The translations under genes and the position numbers were made by a program. DNA of 64,000 bases from Pseudomonadota bacterium. GTDB taxonomy: Bacteria > Bdellovibrionota > FAC87 > UBA2466. The notes below the pieces were generated by a model that searched no databases, was not told the DNA's origin, and saw only the letters and a list, made by a program, of their open reading frames with translations. Each line of letters starts with the position of its first letter. Positions within the stretch are counted from its first letter, which is position 1. Location of the stretch: contig JAYSWN010000188.1 of NCBI GenBank assembly GCA_043718025.1, positions 28,766 to 92,765 on the forward strand, given 5' to 3'. Below, piece after piece: positions 12,614-63,076 of the stretch.

Positions 12614-14383
12614 TTACCGTTCCGCCGTTTTTTCTTTACCAGATGCGCGGCGCCCTTTTGATTTCTTGCCCGTCTTCTTGTTCGTTTCGCCTTCTGACTC
12701 GGAAGCATCATCGCCATCCACGATCGGTGCTTCTTCTTCGATGACCTGAAACTTGCCCTTTGATTTGGCAAGCTCCGCATCAGCCACAGCTTGATCCAGA
12801 TGCACTTTGGCCTGACTGATGTCGCGTCCTAAAAGTTTGATTAGACCGTCTGAAGCCTTCTTTTTGCGCGACGCCGGTGCTTTGGCGATACGGCACAAAC
12901 AGTCCACCAGAATGGGGCAAAACTGTTCAATGTGGCGCAGCTTTTCTTCCAGATCGGCTTCCCGATTTTCTTTTCTAATGTGCCGCGACAGGCGTTGTCC
13001 CGCTTGAATAAGGGCACGCCGAATCTCTTCAACCAGCTCATCGCTGGCGTCTACGGTCTCTTTCGAGGCATTTTTAAATTTAATAAACGGCGACACCAAA
13101 CTTACGGCGATGACGTAAGGGCCTGACGGCACGCTTTCGCGGCTCTGGGCCAAGCCGTAAGTGCGCCAATTCACCGTTTCAATCGCTTTCACCATGGCGC
13201 AGGCCGCTTTGTCGAACTGAAGGGGTACGCGGTTGGCAAAACGCATTACCTGCGCCTGTTGCTCTTCCCCATCCGCGCCTTTTCCAGAAACCTTCAAACG
13301 GGCAATCGCCACTTCGATCACCACCGGTTTAGAGTCACAAATGGTAGGCTTGCGGGTCACCACCGCAAAAAAATCGACTTCGCCCAAACGACGAACGCTT
13401 TGCGAAAAGGCCGTTTCCCCGATCGTAATTACCGATCGGGTGCTAGGGGCCATCAGCTCAGTCTTCTGCACGGCGGCAAAGACCTCTTTGAATTGAGCTT
13501 CATTCAGCTTGTCGATGGACTCATCGAGTAACTTTTTGTTCATCCCATTTTTGGTGAACTCTTGAACCACGTTGTCGCTAATGCGCGAAAAACCTTTTTT
13601 AAACCAGCTCTTCAGCGCCATTTTTCCAAACAGATGGGAGTGAGCAATAAATTCGCCAAGCTTCATCGTATGCGGGTGTGGCTCAACGGCGTCAGGGATC
13701 GCAGGCACAACTTCAGACACCCGCTTAATCGTCTGCCACTCTTGCTCCGGCAACCGGTACTTTAGGGTGAGGTGGGGATTTACCAGCGTGGTTCCCAATA
13801 AATAAGAAATCAATCCGCCTTCGCCCTGCAGCTGAATACGGCCGTCAATTTGAAACTCCACCGACACGCCCGAAGGGCGATCCCAGTCCACGTTCTTTTT
13901 ATCGCGGATAATTCCCTTATTGTGTTTGATATCAACTTCCACCGTCATCGAAACGGCCTGTTTCATCTTAGCCGTTTTGGTGATGACTTTAGCGCCGGTC
14001 GCGCTGGTGAGCTGGGCCCAAGTGGTGGCGGCAGAAATACCGATGCCCTGTTGACCACGCGAGCAGCGGCCCCGGCCAAATTTGGACGAAGCCAAATATT
14101 CGCCAAAAACCGACGGCACATCTTCAAGGGCCAGCCCCGGGCCGTTGTCTTCTACGAAAACGGACACTAGGTCCGTATTTTTCATCGTGCCCGCGCCCTT
14201 TTTCTTAATCTCAACGGTGAGCTCGGGCAGAATTCCCTCTTCCTCACAAGCATCGAGGGAGTTATCCACGGCTTCTTTCAAAGTGGTGAGCACCGCTTTG
14301 GTGGGCGAGGAGAAACCAACCTGTTGTAGGTTCTTAGAAAAATATTCAGCCGTACTGCTGGAGGTGATCTTTTGTTTGGCCAC
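12614..14383 (-). CDS. top6B: DNA topoisomerase VI subunit B
   Basis: AEYFSKNLQQVGF; GHKL motifs KEAVDNSLDA, EDNGPG, SSKF, SRGQQGIGIS; transducer RFANRVPL and FKNASKE; probable GTG start at 14383 after AGAAGG. Confidence 0.93.
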   Translation of the reverse strand: MAKQKITSSSTAEYFSKNLQQVGFSSPTKAVLTTLKEAVDNSLDACEEEGILPELTVEIKKKGAGTMKNTDLVSVFVEDNGPGLALEDVPSVFGEYLASSKFGRGRCSRGQQGIGISAATTWAQLTSATGAKVITKTAKMKQAVSMTVEVDIKHNKGIIRDKKNVDWDRPSGVSVEFQIDGRIQLQGEGGLISYLLGTTLVNPHLTLKYRLPEQEWQTIKRVSEVVPAIPDAVEPHPHTMKLGEFIAHSHLFGKMALKSWFKKGFSRISDNVVQEFTKNGMNKKLLDESIDKLNEAQFKEVFAAVQKTELMAPSTRSVITIGETAFSQSVRRLGEVDFFAVVTRKPTICDSKPVVIEVAIARLKVSGKGADGEEQQAQVMRFANRVPLQFDKAACAMVKAIETVNWRTYGLAQSRESVPSGPYVIAVSLVSPFIKFKNASKETVDASDELVEEIRRALIQAGQRLSRHIRKENREADLEEKLRHIEQFCPILVDCLCRIAKAPASRKKKASDGLIKLLGRDISQAKVHLDQAVADAELAKSKGKFQVIEEEAPIVDGDDASESEGETNKKTGKKSKGRRASGKEKTAER

Positions 14384-14526
14384 GTGCCTTCTCTTTGTTG
14401 TTAAACCAAGCCAATAAGACTCAAAAAAAGCCGGCGCCGTAGTTTTTGCGCGCCACTTCAGAACTAATGATACTCGAGAATAGGGTATCAAGGGGAAACG
14501 AGGCAAGCTCGCTCTCCCTCAAAAAT

Positions 14527-45023: not shown

Positions 45024-46013
45024 ATGATGAAACTTCTTGGAACCCTCAACTTATTGGCCGTTTTTCTCGCCACTCCCTTTTTTTTGTCAACCGCCAACGC
45101 CGCCCTGCAAGTGGCAAATGCGGCGCCCCATTCGGATTACGCCTGGCTTCCCGATTACAAGCGGCTGTTCTTGAGGGCGGGGGCCAATTTATTTAGTTCG
45201 GCCTCTAATTTCGATAATGCCGGAAACTTGGCCAACCTAACTGGCAACGCTGAGCTAACCCGTAATTATTTCTTCATTCAACCGGAGTACGGCTTGGCGC
45301 AAGACTGGTCGATGAAGGCGCAACTGGGGCTGATTTCCAGCACCGTCACTAACGGCAGTGGAGCGGCCGCCCTGTCGAGCTCGGGCTTTGGAGACATGAA
45401 TTTTTCGCTGAAGTGGATGGTGAAGCCCTTCGATCCGTTGCTCAGTTTTGAAGCGGTGTTTGTGCTCCCGACGGCGCAAGCCGTGCCGGCCACTAGAACG
45501 GATGTGGCGCTGGGCGACGGCAGCTTTGACGCCGGAATCAAGTTACACACCGCCCATGAAAGTGGGTCTTTCGCGTTGGGCTTTAGCCCAGGTTTTATTT
45601 ACCGCAACAAGGGGTACTCGCCACTAGTTACCGGCGATGCTTTTGTTCAGTTTGATTTTAGGCGCGGCTACCTTCGGGGTTATGGAAATTTGGTGTTTCC
45701 ACTGACCACGGTGCCGCTCTTTGATTCGAGTATTACCAAACATGACGCCAATGGATCGGCCGGCAGCTACGCCCTGCTTTCGGCCAGCCCCTTTGGTTTC
45801 AGCGCCGGCGCCAAGCTAGGCATTAAAATCGTTGATGAGCTTTTTGTGGAAGCTTGGTTCGCGCGCTCTTTTGCGGGCCAACGTTACCCAAATTTCAATC
45901 AGTTTGGGTTTGGCCTTTTTTACGCGATCGATTTTTTGGAAGTGCTTCCGGTCAAAAATCTACGCGAAGTGCCTTTCGATGGGGATGAGGGCAATTTCTA
46001 TAAGGGAAAATAA
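45024..46013 (+). CDS. Probable outer-membrane beta-barrel protein
   Basis: Signal peptide, EYGL, SGFGDMNF, LPT..LGDGS.D, amphipathic strands. Confidence 0.65.
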   Translation: MMKLLGTLNLLAVFLATPFFLSTANAALQVANAAPHSDYAWLPDYKRLFLRAGANLFSSASNFDNAGNLANLTGNAELTRNYFFIQPEYGLAQDWSMKAQLGLISSTVTNGSGAAALSSSGFGDMNFSLKWMVKPFDPLLSFEAVFVLPTAQAVPATRTDVALGDGSFDAGIKLHTAHESGSFALGFSPGFIYRNKGYSPLVTGDAFVQFDFRRGYLRGYGNLVFPLTTVPLFDSSITKHDANGSAGSYALLSASPFGFSAGAKLGIKIVDELFVEAWFARSFAGQRYPNFNQFGFGLFYAIDFLEVLPVKNLREVPFDGDEGNFYKGK

Positions 46014-46014
46014 A

Positions 46015-47922
46015 TTACTTTGCCGGCGTTTCACGGCGCAGAGTGGTGACTTCGCCGTTTGAAATAGGACCATTGTAGGCCTTGCCGCCATTAGTGCGGC
46101 GGCCCATTTTCATTTTCTTTAAGTAGTCGGCGTTGAGCGAGCTTGCCTCGCCCTCCAGAAACACGCGCGGCCGTTTCGAAGCCACGAGCGCCGCCGCGGC
46201 TTCGGCTTCGACTTCGGATTTCGTTTTCTTGTTAAGGTAACTCGAGTCTAAATTATTTCCCGCGGCCCCACCGCTGCCTTTGCCGACGGCATTGAGTTGA
46301 CTGGCCGAAATGGAAGTGTCGACTTTGTTGGCTTTGTCGTCGTATTCGGTGCGGGCACCGCCAGCGCCGCCGACCGAAGCCGGGCCACGTCCCGCGCCAA
46401 CTTTCACCACTTCACTCGCGCCGCCGGCGGCGCCGTTTGCCGAATCAGCTTGAGAGGTAACATCGCCTGCAGCCCCGCCACCGTCGGAAGAGGCTGCGTA
46501 ACCGCCCCCGATTGTCTTAGCGCCCGAGCCGCCAGCGTTAGAAGCAGCACCTGCGTCCGGCGCACCAAAACCACCGGGTGGTTTTTTATGACCGGCGCCG
46601 CCCGTAGCGACGTCGACAGATCCGGAGCCAGCCCCCGAAGCCGATGAACCAAAAGATTTTGCACCAGCCGCGCCGGAGCCCGATGCTGCCGCGCCACCAG
46701 ATTCACTTCCGCTTGCGGATCCGCTGTCGCCAGACTTGCTGGCTTGCCCACCGGCACCGGGGCTTGCGGGCGGCGTGAAGATAGGTTTACCTAAATCAAA
46801 CATGCGTTCGGAGTCGCCTTTAACGATGTAGGTCTCTTGCCCTGAGTTGTACTTCCAGCGCCCGTCGTTGGAGAGGCTTCTATTGCGCAATTCATTGCAA
46901 CCAAAGTCATTGAGCCCATCGGATTTAGCCAGACCGGCGGCGCTGGCGTCGCCTTCATTCCAGCTACCTAGACCAAGGCCCGCACCGGCGCCGTAGGGAA
47001 GACCGGTGATCTGGCGAAAAATAGTGGTGGCCAATGCTTGCGGCGTGTTGCGTCCCACGATTCCAGAACCGGTGGGATTTACTTCGGCTCCACGGCCAGT
47101 CATTCGATAGCGCTGTTTATAAACTTCACCGGGATTGTAAGTGAGATCTTCGCAAGTATCGCGATCGTTGGCGCCGGCTCCGCACATTTTAGCGGCCTGC
47201 GCCGGATTACCCGTAACGGTGGCCGAGGCCACGCGATTTACCCCTTGCGACCCCATGCCCTGAATCGCATTGCACGACTGACGCGCTTGCGCATTGATGG
47301 CCTGCGGACTGCCCGGAGTTGATTTTACGTAGAAGGGAAACACCACCAAGTTAACCCCACACTTGGCCGCCATGTCCACCGCGCCTTTGACCATCGCGTT
47401 GCCGTTACCCACCGAGGGAGAGAGAAAAATGCAGGCCGGAAACCAGCGATCGTACGCTTCGATTTTACCCGGTTTATTTTGCGGCCCCCCGCCGCCACTT
47501 AAATCGCCCGCACTGTTTGGCCCTTTTCCGGGCCCTTCGCCTTTTGCGGCGTTGTCATCGTAGGTTGTAGACTGCGTGCCAGTTCCGCCGCCAGAATTGC
47601 TGGCGCCGCCGCCGGCACCACTTCCACCGGCAGAATCGCCGGCCGTATTTGAATTTGATGAGGTGGAAAATTGTTTAAGTAAATTGCCGATGCGCCCGCC
47701 CGCCGATGCGCCCGCCGGATTGAGGATTGGGTTTCCGTTTTGGTCCAACGCCGTTGAAATGCGGCCGCCGGGGTTAACTAGTTTAAGATTGCTCCGCTTA
47801 ATTTTGCTCTGGAACTTGGCGCCATTTTTGGTCGGCACCGCTTTTACCACTGCCGCCTGAGCCGAATCATAAAATCCGATCGAAAAAAGAGTTACGGTAA
47901 TGAGCATGAGTGGCTTCATCAC
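46015..47922 (-). CDS. Secreted Gly/Ser-rich protein with Cys-rich core (paralog of the next gene; no HExxxH)
   Basis: Signal peptide ending SAQA; shares CGVNLVVFP and NDGxW..ETY with 47919-50126; GTGA overlap. Confidence 0.75.
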   Translation of the reverse strand: MMKPLMLITVTLFSIGFYDSAQAAVVKAVPTKNGAKFQSKIKRSNLKLVNPGGRISTALDQNGNPILNPAGASAGGRIGNLLKQFSTSSNSNTAGDSAGGSGAGGGASNSGGGTGTQSTTYDDNAAKGEGPGKGPNSAGDLSGGGGPQNKPGKIEAYDRWFPACIFLSPSVGNGNAMVKGAVDMAAKCGVNLVVFPFYVKSTPGSPQAINAQARQSCNAIQGMGSQGVNRVASATVTGNPAQAAKMCGAGANDRDTCEDLTYNPGEVYKQRYRMTGRGAEVNPTGSGIVGRNTPQALATTIFRQITGLPYGAGAGLGLGSWNEGDASAAGLAKSDGLNDFGCNELRNRSLSNDGRWKYNSGQETYIVKGDSERMFDLGKPIFTPPASPGAGGQASKSGDSGSASGSESGGAAASGSGAAGAKSFGSSASGAGSGSVDVATGGAGHKKPPGGFGAPDAGAASNAGGSGAKTIGGGYAASSDGGGAAGDVTSQADSANGAAGGASEVVKVGAGRGPASVGGAGGARTEYDDKANKVDTSISASQLNAVGKGSGGAAGNNLDSSYLNKKTKSEVEAEAAAALVASKRPRVFLEGEASSLNADYLKKMKMGRRTNGGKAYNGPISNGEVTTLRRETPAK

Positions 47923-50126
47923 TCACCCCCTGAAATCGCACGCGGTCGTCGGGCCGCGCCACTGCTGCCCCGGGGACGACGCGACACCGCATTGTCATCT
48001 TCCGCTTTCTGAATCTGCCGGCGGCGTTTAATACGCTCGCGATTATCGATCTCTTGCGGCGAAAATTCACTTGGGCTGCCCACGCCATTAAAGAAATCGG
48101 CGCCCGACAATCCGGCTCCCGCTCCGGCCTGAATCGAAGACACTGAGGCAGGCCTACGTTCGCCAGAAGCCGTAGTGCCGACTGAGCCATCGCCCTTAAC
48201 GGCGTTGTCATCGTAAGTGGTTGAGTTGCCCCGCGGTCCGGCCAAACCAATCGGTGCGCTACGAAGCTGCGAATCAACGGTAGGTGCTCCCGGCGATTCA
48301 CCCTTGGGCGCCTCGTCGTCGTAAGTGGTGCTTTGGCTGCCGCCACTTCCGCCGCTGGCGCCCCCCCCGCTACGGCTACCCGGAGGAGGCGGATCGACTT
48401 TGGGTTTGCCGACGGGACCTACGCTTGCATCGCCGCCTGGGTTTTTGGGCGCGCTGTCGTCGAAGCCAATAGACTGCGTAGCTTTGGGCTGGCCCTGTGG
48501 GGGCGGAGTGCGCGGGAGATCAATAAAAGTTTCGTCGGGCGGATCTCCGGCCACGCCGGCCCCGGCTTTAGTAATTTTTTGCGCGTTGGTTAGTAGGCCC
48601 GGGCGTTTGCGATGGCGAGGATCATCGGAATCGGATGCCGAAGCTTGCGAGGCGCCGCCAGAAGTAGGCGTTGAGCTTTTAGGCGCGGGGTTTGCGTTTC
48701 CCGCAGAGTCTTGTTTGGCGAGGCTGTCGTCGAAAACCACGGTTTTTCCACTTCCCACAATCTTAGGCGGCGAAACCTGTCCGGCGAGGGGAATGGGCGG
48801 GGGGTCATTGAAGAGCTTGTTGCCGGAGTTTAATTTCCACCAATTGCCCGGATCCTTGGGCGGTACATAATAAGTCTCACGATTGGCCTCCCAGCGCCAA
48901 GTGCCATCATTTTTCATCGCGTTTTTTCTAATTATCGCACAGCCCGCGGGCGTCCATCCTTCGCCGTCACCGCCATCTTTGGGCCCAATGCCGTTACCGT
49001 GCCCCTTACCGTTGGGCATTCCCATCATGCTGTGACCAATGGCTTCGTGGGCTACGGTCTGCGAATCGCAAGAACCCCCATCCTCGATTGAAGGAGCAAT
49101 GGACATTCTACCGCTGCCACCCTTGGAGCCATCGGCCTTAATATCTTTGAGTCGCTTAATCGCAATAGCTTTGTCTGCGGCAGAGGTGGCCCCAGAAGTA
49201 TCGTCCCTTTGTCGTTCGTAATCTTTAACAATAGCGTCGTAGTCTTCGGAACCAGTTGCGCTATTGACTACTGCACAGCCCGCGATCGGTAGTTTTTCTT
49301 TATAGCGAATGTCCCTTGGGTCTGAGTCGTATGGTGGATTTTCTGCGTACCCTTTGCACATCTCGTCCGCCATTGCCAGTGAACTTACACAGAAGGAAGT
49401 GGACGCATTCGTTACGCCGGGAATCTTGCCGACAATATTGCAGGCATCCATTTGCAGCTTATTGTTCGCCTCGGCGGCTCCGGCATCGGGATTGTAACTG
49501 CCAGGAGCGACCGTCACCGGAAAAACTACCAGATTCACACCGCATGCCTGCGCCATGTTGTCGGTCATTTTTTTGATAGTCTCATTGCCACGTTGTGCGG
49601 AGACGGCCTGGCCGTCCATAAAAAGGCACATGGCGTAAAACTTATCGAAGGCCTGAGTTTGTGGATTCACTCCGCCCGGCCCATTACCGCCGCTCAATGG
49701 ACGCCCGCTATCATTCTTCGGCGCGTTGTCATCAAACTGGGTTACCTCTTTGGCGCGAGACGGGTCTGAACCCAAAGAACTTCCTCCGCCAGCCCCCGCG
49801 GCTCCCATTGAGTTACCGCCGCCGGCAGAAGATCCACCGCCACCGCCCCCAAAACCGACCGCGTTCGTTCCCGAAAGTTGAGAGCCAGAGCCGGAACCAT
49901 TTGCCGCTCCACTGCCGTTTTCACCATTACCATTTGCGCCGCCAACGTTGACCCACCAGTGTTTGCCCTTTGTTATCGCGCTGGGTTTTCGATTGGGTTT
50001 TGCCGCAGTTTTGACGGCGCCCCGTAAAGCCTCGCGCGGCCTCACCGCCAACGTCGGTTGGCAAAAGGAGGCACTGAGTAAATACACGAAGAGTGTAGAA
50101 GTGTTTTTTCGTAGCGAACGAAACAA
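47919..50126 (-). CDS. Secreted Gly/Pro-rich protein with putative zinc-metallopeptidase motif
   Basis: Signal peptide; TVAHEAIGHSMMG at 49032-49049; five [YF]DD..K motifs; GAGG SD before TTG. Confidence 0.72.
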   Translation of the reverse strand: MFRSLRKNTSTLFVYLLSASFCQPTLAVRPREALRGAVKTAAKPNRKPSAITKGKHWWVNVGGANGNGENGSGAANGSGSGSQLSGTNAVGFGGGGGGSSAGGGNSMGAAGAGGGSSLGSDPSRAKEVTQFDDNAPKNDSGRPLSGGNGPGGVNPQTQAFDKFYAMCLFMDGQAVSAQRGNETIKKMTDNMAQACGVNLVVFPVTVAPGSYNPDAGAAEANNKLQMDACNIVGKIPGVTNASTSFCVSSLAMADEMCKGYAENPPYDSDPRDIRYKEKLPIAGCAVVNSATGSEDYDAIVKDYERQRDDTSGATSAADKAIAIKRLKDIKADGSKGGSGRMSIAPSIEDGGSCDSQTVAHEAIGHSMMGMPNGKGHGNGIGPKDGGDGEGWTPAGCAIIRKNAMKNDGTWRWEANRETYYVPPKDPGNWWKLNSGNKLFNDPPPIPLAGQVSPPKIVGSGKTVVFDDSLAKQDSAGNANPAPKSSTPTSGGASQASASDSDDPRHRKRPGLLTNAQKITKAGAGVAGDPPDETFIDLPRTPPPQGQPKATQSIGFDDSAPKNPGGDASVGPVGKPKVDPPPPGSRSGGGASGGSGGSQSTTYDDEAPKGESPGAPTVDSQLRSAPIGLAGPRGNSTTYDDNAVKGDGSVGTTASGERRPASVSSIQAGAGAGLSGADFFNGVGSPSEFSPQEIDNRERIKRRRQIQKAEDDNAVSRRPRGSSGAARRPRAISGGE

Positions 50127-50188
50127 GCTGAAGACCTCGTAAGAGTGAAAATTCGCTAGAAAACGTACCGCGGGATACCAGTATACAG

Positions 50189-50297: not shown

Positions 50298-50549
50298 CAG
50301 TTCATCGGCTCTTTCCGCTAAAAGTTGGCGGTACACGCCCCACCCGTCCTTGCGAGCCACGAAGTGGCGTGGCAATCCTTGGCCGATGAATGATGAGAGA
50401 GAGAGTTTTATTTAGATTATGGCGAATTGGACGACCTTTAATCCACCGTGTGAGGATTGCTTCGGCCTACGGCCTCGCAAAGACGCGAACGATAACGCGC
50501 CCACTAAAAGAGCAAAGAACCCAGTTCATCGGTTCTTTCCACTAAGAGT
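50298..50549. repeat. 28-bp imperfect direct repeat pair
   Basis: CAGTTCATCGGCTCTTTCCGCTAAAAGT (50298-50325) versus CAGTTCATCGGTTCTTTCCACTAAGAGT (50522-50549); 25/28 identical. Confidence 0.8.
50345..50485. repeat. Palindromic REP/RPE-like non-autonomous element
   Basis: CGTCCTTGCGAG...GTGGCAATCCT and AGGATTGCTTCG...CTCGCAAAGACG inverted arms around a ~70-bp spacer. Confidence 0.7.
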
Positions 50550-50690
50550 GTGGACACTCAAAGATGATTGGTGGGGCAGGGAAACTGCGGGTCGTGGATG
50601 CTCCCTGCGTTGCTCGTGAGGGTTTGGGTGGCGCTTCCTCACTTCGGGGCTAGTGGGTGAAAAGCTAAACCCCACCCTTAAGTAACCTGT

Positions 50691-51461
50691 TCACCCATTA
50701 TTTTCACGAAAGCGGGCAATGAGTTTTGCGAAAGAGCTTTCTGCCGCGGCGGCCATTTTCGCATCGAGGGCCGATTTATTGGTAATGCCAAAAACGTGTT
50801 CCACTCCTTCTGAAACGGTTTCACCAACGGCGTTCCAATCGCTCCAGACGGGCTCATCTGATTTTGCGTCGTACAACGCAAACCGAACCGAGGCGCTGGG
50901 GAAATAATCACCGGCCCCCACCAACTGTTTAAAGCCGCCGCCCTTTTCCACTTTAATAAATACGGTGGCCACCGCGATGGCATCGACCCCCAGTTTTTTG
51001 ATCAGCTCTCTCCGTTTGCTGACATCCGCCGATTCGACAGGGTAGGCATCTACAATTCCATTGGCCGCCAGCCGTTGCGTGCCCGACGCCGAAGGCGGCC
51101 GAACTTGCAGCCCCGCCATCTTCTGCTGGTGATACCCCTGATAAAAACCATTACGTTCGACTTGATGGCGATCGAGCATTTTCCACTTCTGTTCTTTCGC
51201 GAGCTGTTTTTCCAGCGACTGATAGATCGCATCGGCCAAGGGGCTGGCCTGCCCTAATCCCGATCCCCACTCCGCCATGCCGGTGGGACCGGTGCGTTTG
51301 TGGGCACCAAGCGTGAACCCCTCCGGTACGGGCTGCTCAACCGAGAAGCCCACAATCGCCACCCGTTTTAAAGCGGCAGTGCGCTGCTTATCCACTTTCA
51401 TGGTGGCGCAGGCAGCAAGGAATAGGAATGGAAGAGCGGCAGCGAGTGCTTTGTGTTTCAT
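50691..51461 (-). CDS. Hypothetical lipoprotein (possible CsgG/LpoB/TolB-N-like fold)
   Basis: Lipobox FLAA-C; KRVAIVGF, LIKKLGVDAI, LYDAKSDEPVWS; probable ATG at 51461. Confidence 0.7.
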   Translation of the reverse strand: MKHKALAAALPFLFLAACATMKVDKQRTAALKRVAIVGFSVEQPVPEGFTLGAHKRTGPTGMAEWGSGLGQASPLADAIYQSLEKQLAKEQKWKMLDRHQVERNGFYQGYHQQKMAGLQVRPPSASGTQRLAANGIVDAYPVESADVSKRRELIKKLGVDAIAVATVFIKVEKGGGFKQLVGAGDYFPSASVRFALYDAKSDEPVWSDWNAVGETVSEGVEHVFGITNKSALDAKMAAAAESSFAKLIARFRENNG

Positions 51462-51526
51462 ACGATTTTTTAAGTTGAGGCTCCTCTGCGGAGCCCCGCC
51501 TATTTTAAGAAGAAAGTTGTGGGTAA

Positions 51527-52084
51527 CTAAATAATGTCGAAATACCAACCTAAGTTGATGTACGGCAGCCCGCCAAGTCCCGACATAAACGACAAGTTGT
51601 AACCTAGTCCGACGTTAAATCCGCTGGCCGCTTGCCAGTCCACTCCGATGTTGCCGTAGATGAGCGCCTGGCTGGTGGTAAAATTTGCCACCGTGATTGC
51701 CGTGCCGCCGCTTTGGCTCACCGCTACATACGCGAAGCTCAATCCCGCCACCGGCGAAAGACTCCAACCTGGTACAAAAAATCGGGCTCCGCCGCCGAGG
51801 GTCGTGGCGCTGGCCGAAGCATTTCCAAGCGAGGCGCTGATTTGCCCTAAGCCCGCGGTGAAGCGAGCAAAATCAAAAGCGTTGTAAGCTAAATTTACGC
51901 CGATGAGAGTGGGAAACGGATCGCCCAGCACGCCTAAGTAAACTCCGGCTTTTCGCCGCATGCGGTTACTCGCCACGGTAATTTCAGACGAATTCGATGA
52001 ATCCACTTTTACGGCGAACGCCGAACTCTCGCTAATCGAATGCGTTAAAATCAACCCTACAATTAATAGTTTTTGGAAACCCAT
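51527..52084 (-). CDS. Small outer-membrane beta-barrel protein
   Basis: Signal peptide; about 8 amphipathic strands ending PYINLGWYF; AGGAGG SD. Confidence 0.72.
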   Translation of the reverse strand: MGFQKLLIVGLILTHSISESSAFAVKVDSSNSSEITVASNRMRRKAGVYLGVLGDPFPTLIGVNLAYNAFDFARFTAGLGQISASLGNASASATTLGGGARFFVPGWSLSPVAGLSFAYVAVSQSGGTAITVANFTTSQALIYGNIGVDWQAASGFNVGLGYNLSFMSGLGGLPYINLGWYFDII

Positions 52085-61432: not shown

Positions 61433-63076
61433 TTATTTTCTCTTACGAGAAAACCAAACGGCGATACCGGCTAAAAACATTCCGAAGGGCGCAAAGAAAA
61501 CCGAAGCCAAAGTAATTACCTTGGCACGCTCTTCGGTGATGTTGAATTCACTCGAATCGGCAGCTTTTGGGCGAACCGCAATCAGATCTTCCTCGTGCGC
61601 CAGCCAGCTCAGCATGTTTTGAAAAAGATCGGCGTTGATACCAAATCGCCGGGCGCTATTGCCGGCAAAGTCAGAATCTCCCACTACGATCATGCGGAAC
61701 TCAGGATCTTTTTCTGGCTTGTTCTCTGCCAATTTCTCTTTTTCTTTGGCATCGGCATCTTTCAACGAGGTGGGAAAAGGCTCTGCCTTTTTATCAACTT
61801 TGCCGGTGACGGCAAAAGCTAAACCGATTGGCCCCTTGCGGTTCTTTTTTTCGTCCAGTTCAATGCGACCACCCTTCATGCCTTCAAGAGACTTCATATT
61901 GACTTGAAAGCTCTTGTTGCTGGTCGAAAAAAGTGGCGACACGGTCACGCCAGCAGGCAACACCGCCATTTTTTCAATCGGGGTTGGCACCGGATAGATC
62001 GTAGGCTGCTTGGCCTCCTGAGTGATCTGATGGGTAGCATCGTAGGTCATTACGATTGGGGTCAGCGGATTTCCGCCCGCCATTCGCTGCAACGGATTGG
62101 TCTCTAAAATGGTGTCGCCACGCTTCCAATCCAATCCAAACTTCTCCAAGAAAGGTTTCAAATTGGCGGAGGAATCAGGCTCGAGCATTATCATCATCTT
62201 GCCGCCCAAACGTACGTAGCTATCGAGCATTTTTAGCTCGTGCTCCATAAACTCAGACTTGGCGGCCGGAATAATAATGATCTCGGCGTCGGCCGGAACT
62301 TTCTCTTTATCGAGTAGCACCAGATCTTCCACTTTGTAGCGGCCGTTTTCCAACGCGTCTTTCATCTCCGAATAACCTTCTTTGCCGGTATCCGAAGGCA
62401 AACGCTCGCCGTGACCCGACAAGAAGTAGATCTTTTTCTTATCGCCTTTAGCTACCTGAATAATCGCGTTGGTGAGCTTTTCTTCGACCTTCGGATCATC
62501 CGGTCCGTAGATATTATCTACATTTACGGTACGAGCTTCAGACTCCACCACGATGGTTCCGGCTTGTTTGATCTTGTACTTAGTAACGGCCGTAGGCTCT
62601 TTATCCACGTCTACGAACTCAGGCTTGATCATGTTCGTATGGTAGGTGTACTTATCGAAAATTTTCGTAAAGTTTTGCACCTGATCGGGATTGGCAAAAG
62701 TACGAAGCCGTACCTCTGTTTTCATCGCCTTTAAAATCTTAACCGACTGCTCCGACAACGTGTGCACCTTGTTTTTAGTAAGGTCTTTTTTTACGTCATG
62801 TTCGTTAGCAATAAGATTAAGCACCACCGCAATGACTAAGGCCACAATCGACATGAACGCAGAGTTCAGGCCGTATTGCGTAGTCCGTTTGGAAAAGAGT
62901 TGTTTAAGCGATTCTTTCTCCAGCACCGCGTAGGCCACTAGCCCCGCCACCCCTAATCCGACACAGAGCTGCCAAACCAGCGGAAGGTGCGGAAGCAGGT
63001 AAGCGGTTACGCCAGACAACACCAGCAAGAACAGCGCTGAAACTCCAACAATGATCGAAATATTTTTGTTTTTCAT
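61433..63076 (-). CDS. GldG-like ABC-associated membrane/periplasmic protein
   Basis: DLTKNKVHTLSEQS, VDVD, KIYFLSGHGE, IVVGDSDF, NADLFQNMLSWL, C-terminal TM helix. Confidence 0.88.
   Translation of the reverse strand: MKNKNISIIVGVSALFLLVLSGVTAYLLPHLPLVWQLCVGLGVAGLVAYAVLEKESLKQLFSKRTTQYGLNSAFMSIVALVIAVVLNLIANEHDVKKDLTKNKVHTLSEQSVKILKAMKTEVRLRTFANPDQVQNFTKIFDKYTYHTNMIKPEFVDVDKEPTAVTKYKIKQAGTIVVESEARTVNVDNIYGPDDPKVEEKLTNAIIQVAKGDKKKIYFLSGHGERLPSDTGKEGYSEMKDALENGRYKVEDLVLLDKEKVPADAEIIIIPAAKSEFMEHELKMLDSYVRLGGKMMIMLEPDSSANLKPFLEKFGLDWKRGDTILETNPLQRMAGGNPLTPIVMTYDATHQITQEAKQPTIYPVPTPIEKMAVLPAGVTVSPLFSTSNKSFQVNMKSLEGMKGGRIELDEKKNRKGPIGLAFAVTGKVDKKAEPFPTSLKDADAKEKEKLAENKPEKDPEFRMIVVGDSDFAGNSARRFGINADLFQNMLSWLAHEEDLIAVRPKAADSSEFNITEERAKVITLASVFFAPFGMFLAGIAVWFSRKRK

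Follow-up and report, generated by a model that had tools for sequence, protein, structure and literature searches.

Metzincins are defined by the extended zinc-binding motif HExxHxx[G/N]xx[H/D] together with a Met-turn (PMC11674741) and, as a clan, by their catalytic domain (PMC11674741, PMC3427221). The Met of archaemetzincins follows their third His at a distance of eight residues (PMC3427221), the third His of leishmanolysins comes after a large insertion (PMC11957388), and zincins lacking the Met-turn exist (PMC3890501). The longer HExxxH motif is catalytic in TldD and in dipeptidyl peptidase III (DPP III) (PMC5810440), and in family M49, to which DPP III belongs, penta- and hexapeptide forms are both active (PMC5805324). 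Pairs of an active and a dead metalloprotease are already known (TldD/TldE, M16B). Described here is an unnamed family with a predicted metzincin fold, represented by two adjacent genes, A and B, located in a 64,000-nucleotide stretch (the window) of contig JAYSWN010000188.1 from a bacterium of the GTDB lineage Bdellovibrionota; FAC87; UBA2466. A would be a likely secreted zinc endopeptidase of metzincin fold and its paralogue B would bind A and tune it, a combined reading to which we give an even chance.

Residues 360-365 of A read HEAIGH, in agreement with the HExxxH motif that a first-pass annotation, made from the letters of the window alone, had ascribed to the first gene. From 143 hits to a profile of the core domain, 99 non-redundant cores covering profile positions 10-250 were kept, with HE and HE-less classes defined by the motif columns themselves. 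The HE residues are present in 82 cores, and H, E, H and N are all gone in the remaining 17; no partial losses were seen. H365 is conserved in 80 of the 82 HE cores and N372 in 73 of them (0/17 in the HE-less class), while G283, in a predicted upper-rim strand, is found in all 82 and is not the B consensus. Six cysteines are conserved in both classes alike. A is probably an active peptidase. The stretch of B aligned to the motif has no His, Glu, His, as the first-pass annotation had noticed, and the whole B core is His-free.

N372 and I380 are taken as the third-ligand and Met-turn positions because their spacing matches that of metzincins and archaemetzincins. The occupants of these positions are not those of the clan. 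Among the 79 rows with HExxGH, the +4 position is Gly in 74, the +7 third-ligand position is Asn in 75 and His in 4, and the Met-turn position is Ile in 69 and never Met. The exact metzincin motif was found in 0 of the 99 cores, and the third-ligand position of the 17 B cores is never N, H or D. No conserved Met follows the motif in HE-class cores, nor does any other conserved His, Glu or Asp. We give N372 about an even chance of acting as the third zinc ligand. Plain HExxH is found in 14 deeper members among 93 motif-bearing rows, and in four more, so the extra residue of HExxGH likely arose inside the family.

The A and B cores are predicted to adopt the metzincin fold, as known from ADAMs, archaemetzincins and fragilysin. 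AlphaFold gave a predicted local distance difference test score (pLDDT) of 90.3 and a predicted template modelling (TM) score of 0.89 for the A core (81 alignment rows), and values of 93.0 and 0.91 for the B core (49 rows). The order of strands and helices is equal in both models, which fit a metzincin catalytic domain with its 4/5-stranded sheet, backing helix, active-site helix and C-terminal helix. In the Foldseek comparison with zincins that had been proposed earlier, fragilysin came first for A (E value 6.4e-4) and ADAMTS-1 for B (5.1e-4), followed by adamalysins and ADAMs. In an independent search of 48,161 chains, the top 28 matches of A, with Z from 10.1 down to 6.1, are metzincin-type peptidases; the best is ADAMTS5 (Z 10.1, root-mean-square deviation 4.0, 177 residues aligned), and archaemetzincin is among them (Z 10.0, 3.7, 155 aligned). 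Entries 6o38 and 6qig among these matches we take to be metzincin-type peptidases. Archaemetzincin is also the best structural match of the B core (Z 10.5, 3.5, 146 aligned). For one compact relative, a low-confidence model in the Atlas (pLDDT 0.48) matches Reprolysin_4 clusters, and Atlas features of the A core point best to Peptidase_M85 (0.90, 118 shared features), a lead only. A metzincin fold is by itself no proof of function.

The likeness to metzincins (ADAM/adamalysin/ADAMTS M12B, archaemetzincin M54, fragilysin M10C, pappalysin M43) includes the predicted topology (Z about 10), the HE on the active-site helix, a Gly after it and the third-ligand position three residues beyond that Gly, the hydrophobic nature of the residue spaced like the Met-turn Met, the C-terminal helix, the signal peptide and the disulfides. 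This family differs from them by its mostly HExxGH motif in place of HExxH, Asn at the third-ligand position, Ile for Met, an identity of 8–15% with no profile match, long arms on both sides that carry an invariant His, and an operon-coupled dead paralogue. The M12B reprolysin models (PF13688/PF13582) do not match A or B, and the best member, 1 of 49, reached an E value of 0.069 with 13.2 bits against a cut-off of 27. A has neither the extended motif with its His or Asp third ligand nor the Met of the Met-turn. Lacking these two defining sequence features, the family is not filed as a metzincin member despite its predicted fold.

The HExxxH motif had also been read as a lead to M49, and this lead was not supported. 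DPP III shares with our family the HExxGH hexapeptide and HExxH variants within one family, and the papers found with the HEXXGH string are nearly all about DPP III. However, DPP III is a cytosolic two-domain enzyme, whereas the cores described here are about 230–290 residues long, match metzincins and lack the second Glu motif. This second M49 motif, of EExRAE/D type, bears the third ligand. A regular expression for it matched 1 of the 99 proteins, and the A class has no conserved Glu after its motif. The fold matches listed are metzincins, with no M49 or TldD structure and no two-lobe DPP III fold among them, although absence from this list does not by itself exclude a family. A and B have no Pfam or NCBIfam match to the TldD/PmbA profile either. 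We take the family to be neither M49 nor TldD.

TldD/TldE nevertheless offers the best functional analogy. TldD and TldE are cytoplasmic. They form a heterodimer whose active subunit has HExxxH and a remote third ligand and whose other subunit is an inactive paralogue of it (PMC5810440), and A and B likewise have HExxxH in one protein and not in its paralogue. They differ in having their own unrelated fold and in that both subunits are needed in E. coli (PMC5810440), while no dead copy was found here in 20 of 34 genomes. Mitochondrial processing peptidase and the bacterial two-gene M16B peptidases also associate active and inactive homologous subunits, encoded in prokaryotes by a two-gene operon (PMC11266112), but these are HxxEH clamshell enzymes of unrelated motif and fold whose inactive subunit is essential.

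Both genes are on the minus strand and their open reading frames share four nucleotides (GTGA), the overlap described in the first-pass annotation; an alternative start of B, an ATG, lies one codon downstream. All the motifs quoted in that annotation are present in the two translations, and the colinear core that it proposed is confirmed by BLASTP (E value 5e-11, second segment 1e-5) and by profile-profile comparison (probability 100%, E value 1.8e-51, 236 columns), scores by which the homology of the two cores exceeds chance. The region 45900–50150 is covered gap-free, with one difference, by assembled contigs of two runs that are possibly from the source sample. This agreement shows that the loss of the motif in B is no assembly error. 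Signal peptides had been claimed for both proteins. In a crude hydrophobicity test used in place of SignalP, the best hydrophobic 9-mer scored 2.6 for B and 1.93 for A, and 53 of 60 homologs reach 2.0. A lipobox or Tat (twin-arginine translocation) motif was found in 0 of these 60. Low-complexity arms, reported earlier as flanking both cores, make up about 60% of each chain, with 50–58% G/S/A/P against 35–36% in the cores.

These C-terminal arms contain recurring short motifs. A DDxxxK-type repeat is present in 51 of 92 arms (1.3 after shuffling), with five copies in A and two in B, and an FF motif is found near the arm end in 52 of 92 (0.7 after shuffling). An invariant His of this arm is newly noted here as a candidate remote zinc ligand; the first-pass annotation had missed it, together with the Asn at the third-ligand position and the lack of the Met-turn Met. 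A His lies 30–110 residues past the core in 81/81 A-type and 14/15 B-type arms, where the His content of the remaining arm sequence predicts 0.09 and 0.13, respectively, and it is usually followed by Lys or Arg. Its spacing past the core is narrower in B (56–64) than in A (41–71), and more variable in dead copies detached from A. It is also kept by members with a His at the normal third position (P0011–P0013), and five HExxH members have no His at this distance. That a His should be invariant within a disordered arm hints at a role in metal binding, either as the true third ligand or as a removable fourth one. Leishmanolysin (M8) is similar as a metzincin whose third His follows a large insertion, but this insertion is folded and succeeded by a Met-turn, whereas the candidate His here is in a low-complexity arm. 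Four divergent members (L062, L072, L073, L074) have HExxH and additional Cys after the motif, with the arm His missing; a second, Cys-based metal site resembling that of archaemetzincins is possible in these.

The view of B as a pseudo-enzyme was borne out. The HE-less cores form one clade. In a quick tree of 99 rows, all 17 fall on one side of a branch with a Shimodaira–Hasegawa-like approximate likelihood ratio test (SH-aLRT) value of 100. When five detached copies were added in a 68-row subset, all 22 HE-less rows were still on one side (SH-aLRT 100), also with the motif columns dropped; the root of these trees was not inferred. The dead copies are an old pseudo-enzyme clade of single origin. 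B is under constraint, with intact frames and cores that are more conserved among close relatives than those of A: compared with L001, L002 and L003, the B core is 75, 71 and 76% identical and the A core 65, 44 and 50%. In more distant comparisons the A core is the more conserved of the two. The pairwise identities of A and B correlate (rho 0.57, 36 comparisons, in which kin are not independent). Residues G234, G237, R240 and another R (A numbering) are invariant specifically in B.

Neither A nor B matches any Pfam or NCBIfam family, in keeping with the first-pass statement that no named family was recognised. Sequence searches of the PDB with three alignments left the core unmatched, the hits of one search falling in the Gly-rich arm, and phmmer, run against 1.84 billion representatives, returned 83 hits with E values up to 0.001. 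Of the 38 genomes in the host's order, 34 have a match to the core profile, as against 0 of 363 other sampled genomes of the phylum; the four order genomes without a match are 77–93% complete. Among the genomes sampled here, the family is so far confined to one bacterial order. An HE-bearing member was inspected in each of the 34 family-bearing genomes, and most family members sit between lptF and the rimO run. A and B are in tandem in 9 of the 38 genomes, and A precedes B in 9/9 pairs examined, with a 4-nucleotide overlap in seven and a 2-nucleotide gap in two. A detached HE-less copy is present in five genomes of another genus, and an intact copy accompanies the dead one in 14/14 genomes. 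The recurrence of active and inactive pairs, put forward earlier as a check, thus holds for the nine genomes with coupled genes, but the pairing is not obligatory. That no dead copy was found in 20 of the 34 genomes means that B is optional, A-type genes managing without it, and that the partnership is non-essential.

A few further arrangements were observed. At two loci of a sister family (L048:5209-9328, L049:4938-9089), tandem pairs 3–4 nucleotides apart keep HExxH in both genes; the locus seems to have undergone a separate duplication there. Some genomes encode, at another place, a further subfamily with HESxHSNCC. A third member in the host genome (L053, G000:C176:3-584) resembles it but ends with the contig before the motif, and is likely the host member of this subfamily. 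In genome G003 a truncated family member is followed by a second B-type gene (L050, G003:C105), and there is another fragment (L051, G003:C558); this may be a duplicated pair or mixed binning. Stand-alone short forms account for three hits of 131–522 residues; the one examined in context, P0095, is a compact member.

A model of the A core, the B core and zinc scored 0.51, against 0.07 for the best control; its runs share at least 58% of contacts, with a partner pLDDT of at least 83. In the calibration of such models 116 of 157 solved pairs and 2 of 215 mismatched pairs reached the mark, counts that hold only roughly here. Both mismatches did so at scores of 0.60 or under, as did only 18 of the 157 solved pairs. 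The heteromer suggested in the first-pass annotation, and with it the likeness to the stable TldD/TldE heterodimer, receives weak support from this model. We lean modestly towards the two predicted cores binding each other.

In the proposed mechanism, A would be exported by Sec, would fold with three disulfides in the periplasm and would perhaps be released through a type II secretion system; the host has a GspD secretin above cut-off. The zinc ligands would be H360, H365 and either N372 or the remote arm His; the helix would absorb the extra residue of HExxGH, as happens in TldD and DPP III, and E361 would be the general base in cleavage. If it is not the third ligand, the arm His could hold the enzyme in a latent state as a removable fourth one. 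Through translational coupling, roughly one B would be made for each A, and B would pair with A as a non-catalytic subunit that tunes its activity, after the TldE/TldD pattern.

Several points weigh against this reading. The structural matches are distant (8–15% identity, TM about 0.4). In the literature searched with the string HEXXHXXGXXN, where subscription journals are thinly covered, no precedent for Asn as a protease zinc ligand was found, and for this reason A might have little or no affinity for zinc. The third ligand could instead be the arm His, which we consider a rather less probable choice than N372 though a serious one. A pass at a model score of 0.51 would be wrong more often than right unless the pair was likely beforehand, and the score may reflect a tendency of the family to self-associate. 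The detached dead copies are on long branches (1.0–2.3), fast-evolving and of unsure exact placement. Finally, in most family-bearing genomes the intact gene occurs with no dead copy found, as given above.

The persistence of the arm His in the dead paralogue would be explained if this residue were given in trans, A-A dimers completing each other's sites and the arm His of B completing the site of A. Its near-invariance in both arm types, its tighter spacing in B and the lack of another conserved candidate residue after the motif all agree with this, as do the late third His of leishmanolysin (PMC11957388) and the combination of HExxxH with a remote Cys in TldD (PMC5810440). However, members with a His at the normal third position still keep the arm His, five HExxH members do not have it, and N372 is lost exactly alongside H, E and H, as expected of a ligand. 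We regard a split site as unlikely, and we are as sceptical of its extension to a protease family in which the co-translated pseudo-enzyme switches its active twin on or off by completing, or capping, the zinc site in trans with its arm His.

A and B could also be co-expressed and act separately, A as a protease and B as a substrate- or surface-binding protein comparable to inactive ADAMs, a known class (PMC11266112). The genomes with a detached dead copy, or with none found, fit this idea, and the invariant residues proper to B could bind another ligand. The strict coupling in all tandem pairs, the much faster evolution of detached copies and the weak model support for A-B contact argue in the other direction, and we find separate action improbable. 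Less probable still is that neither protein is a working protease, both being disulfide-bonded structural or adhesive subunits whose repeat arms form a surface layer, with the A motif as a metal site only. The non-canonical third ligand, the absent Met-turn and the large share of low-complexity arm with recurring motifs are consistent with such a role. Against this view, all 82 intact cores retain the Glu along with the two His, although a site with a purely structural task could do without it, and cleft residues are conserved only in the HE class.

Table. Features of genes A and B (window positions).
Feature	Position	Strand	Remark
Gene A	47919..50126	-	735 aa; predicted secreted metzincin-fold metallopeptidase, HExxGH
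Likely Sec signal peptide of A, residues 1-27	50046..50126	-	From sequence; crude hydrophobicity test
N-terminal Gly/Ser-rich arm of A, one [FY]DDxAxK-type motif at residue 131	49662..50045	-	From sequence
Core domain of A, residues 156-441	48804..49661	-	Six family-wide Cys; predicted metzincin fold
H360-E361-x-x-G-H365 motif of A	49032..49049	-	End of predicted active-site helix
N372 of A, third-ligand position	49011..49013	-	By spacing, 3 residues past G369
I380 of A, Met-turn Met spacing of archaemetzincins	48987..48989	-	By spacing, third ligand +8
C-terminal low-complexity arm of A: four [FY]DDxAxK-type repeats, FF motif, basic tail	47922..48803	-	From sequence
H505 of A, invariant arm His, mostly then K/R	48612..48614	-	Candidate remote zinc ligand; from sequence
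Overlap GTGA, A stop/B start	47919..47922	-	Likely translational coupling
Gene B	46015..47922	-	635 aa; predicted secreted paralogue, fold as A, zinc motif gone
Core domain of B, residues 153-384	46771..47466	-	Six Cys kept; His-free
Degenerate motif stretch of B, residues 297-319	46966..47034	-	Aligns to HExxGH...N stretch of A
H445 of B, arm His retained by pseudo-enzyme	46588..46590	-	From sequence

The pair lies among housekeeping genes: ftsK, lolA, yajQ and rimO to one side, and to the other lptF and the gene of a RarA-like ATPase. Promoter and terminator scans stayed at chance level. The neighbouring gene (45024–46013) encodes a beta-barrel-like protein of 329 residues that likely carries a signal peptide and that matches neither Pfam nor NCBIfam. 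It follows rimO in most loci examined, and its stop is 1 nucleotide apart from that of B. A functional link to A and B was considered and rejected: the gene is convergent and part of the ftsK-lolA-yajQ-rimO run, and A is inverted relative to it in L010 and L036. Upstream of A, an intergenic repeat of about 210 nucleotides (50300–50510), likely a MITE (miniature inverted-repeat transposable element) or REP (repetitive extragenic palindromic)-like element, is present in about 25 copies (38 BLASTN hits, 24 host-genome contigs), and a second, rarer repeat near 50580–50650 gave 3–5 hits. Between lptF and A, the region 50691–52084 holds two small genes without significant Pfam match, one for a likely lipoprotein and one for a small protein of beta-barrel-like kind, and a TetR-like gene; this insertion is found only in the closest relatives (L001–L003). 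Elsewhere in the window, 12614–14506 encodes subunit B of DNA topoisomerase VI, above the NCBIfam cut-off, and 61433–63076 a GldG-like ABC substrate-binding protein, under its family cut-off. DNA topoisomerase VI is an archaeal-type enzyme that is patchy among bacteria.

No prior description of this family was found in the literature searched, in which subscription papers are thinly covered. The family breaks three hallmarks of the metzincin clan together, namely the HExxH spacing, the His/Asp third ligand and the Met-turn, and keeps the catalytic Glu. As HExxH and HExxGH occur naturally with Asn and His variants in one family, design rules of zinc sites become directly testable. The pair adds a likely secreted bacterial case to the few active/dead metalloprotease pairs known, and all stages are represented in the family: a single gene, two intact copies, a coupled dead copy and a detached dead copy. 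Since most genomes of the order have one conserved gene, its target is more plausibly a dedicated one in the envelope or outside the cell than a matter of bulk feeding. The family marks a single uncultured order and likely has a core extracellular function there.

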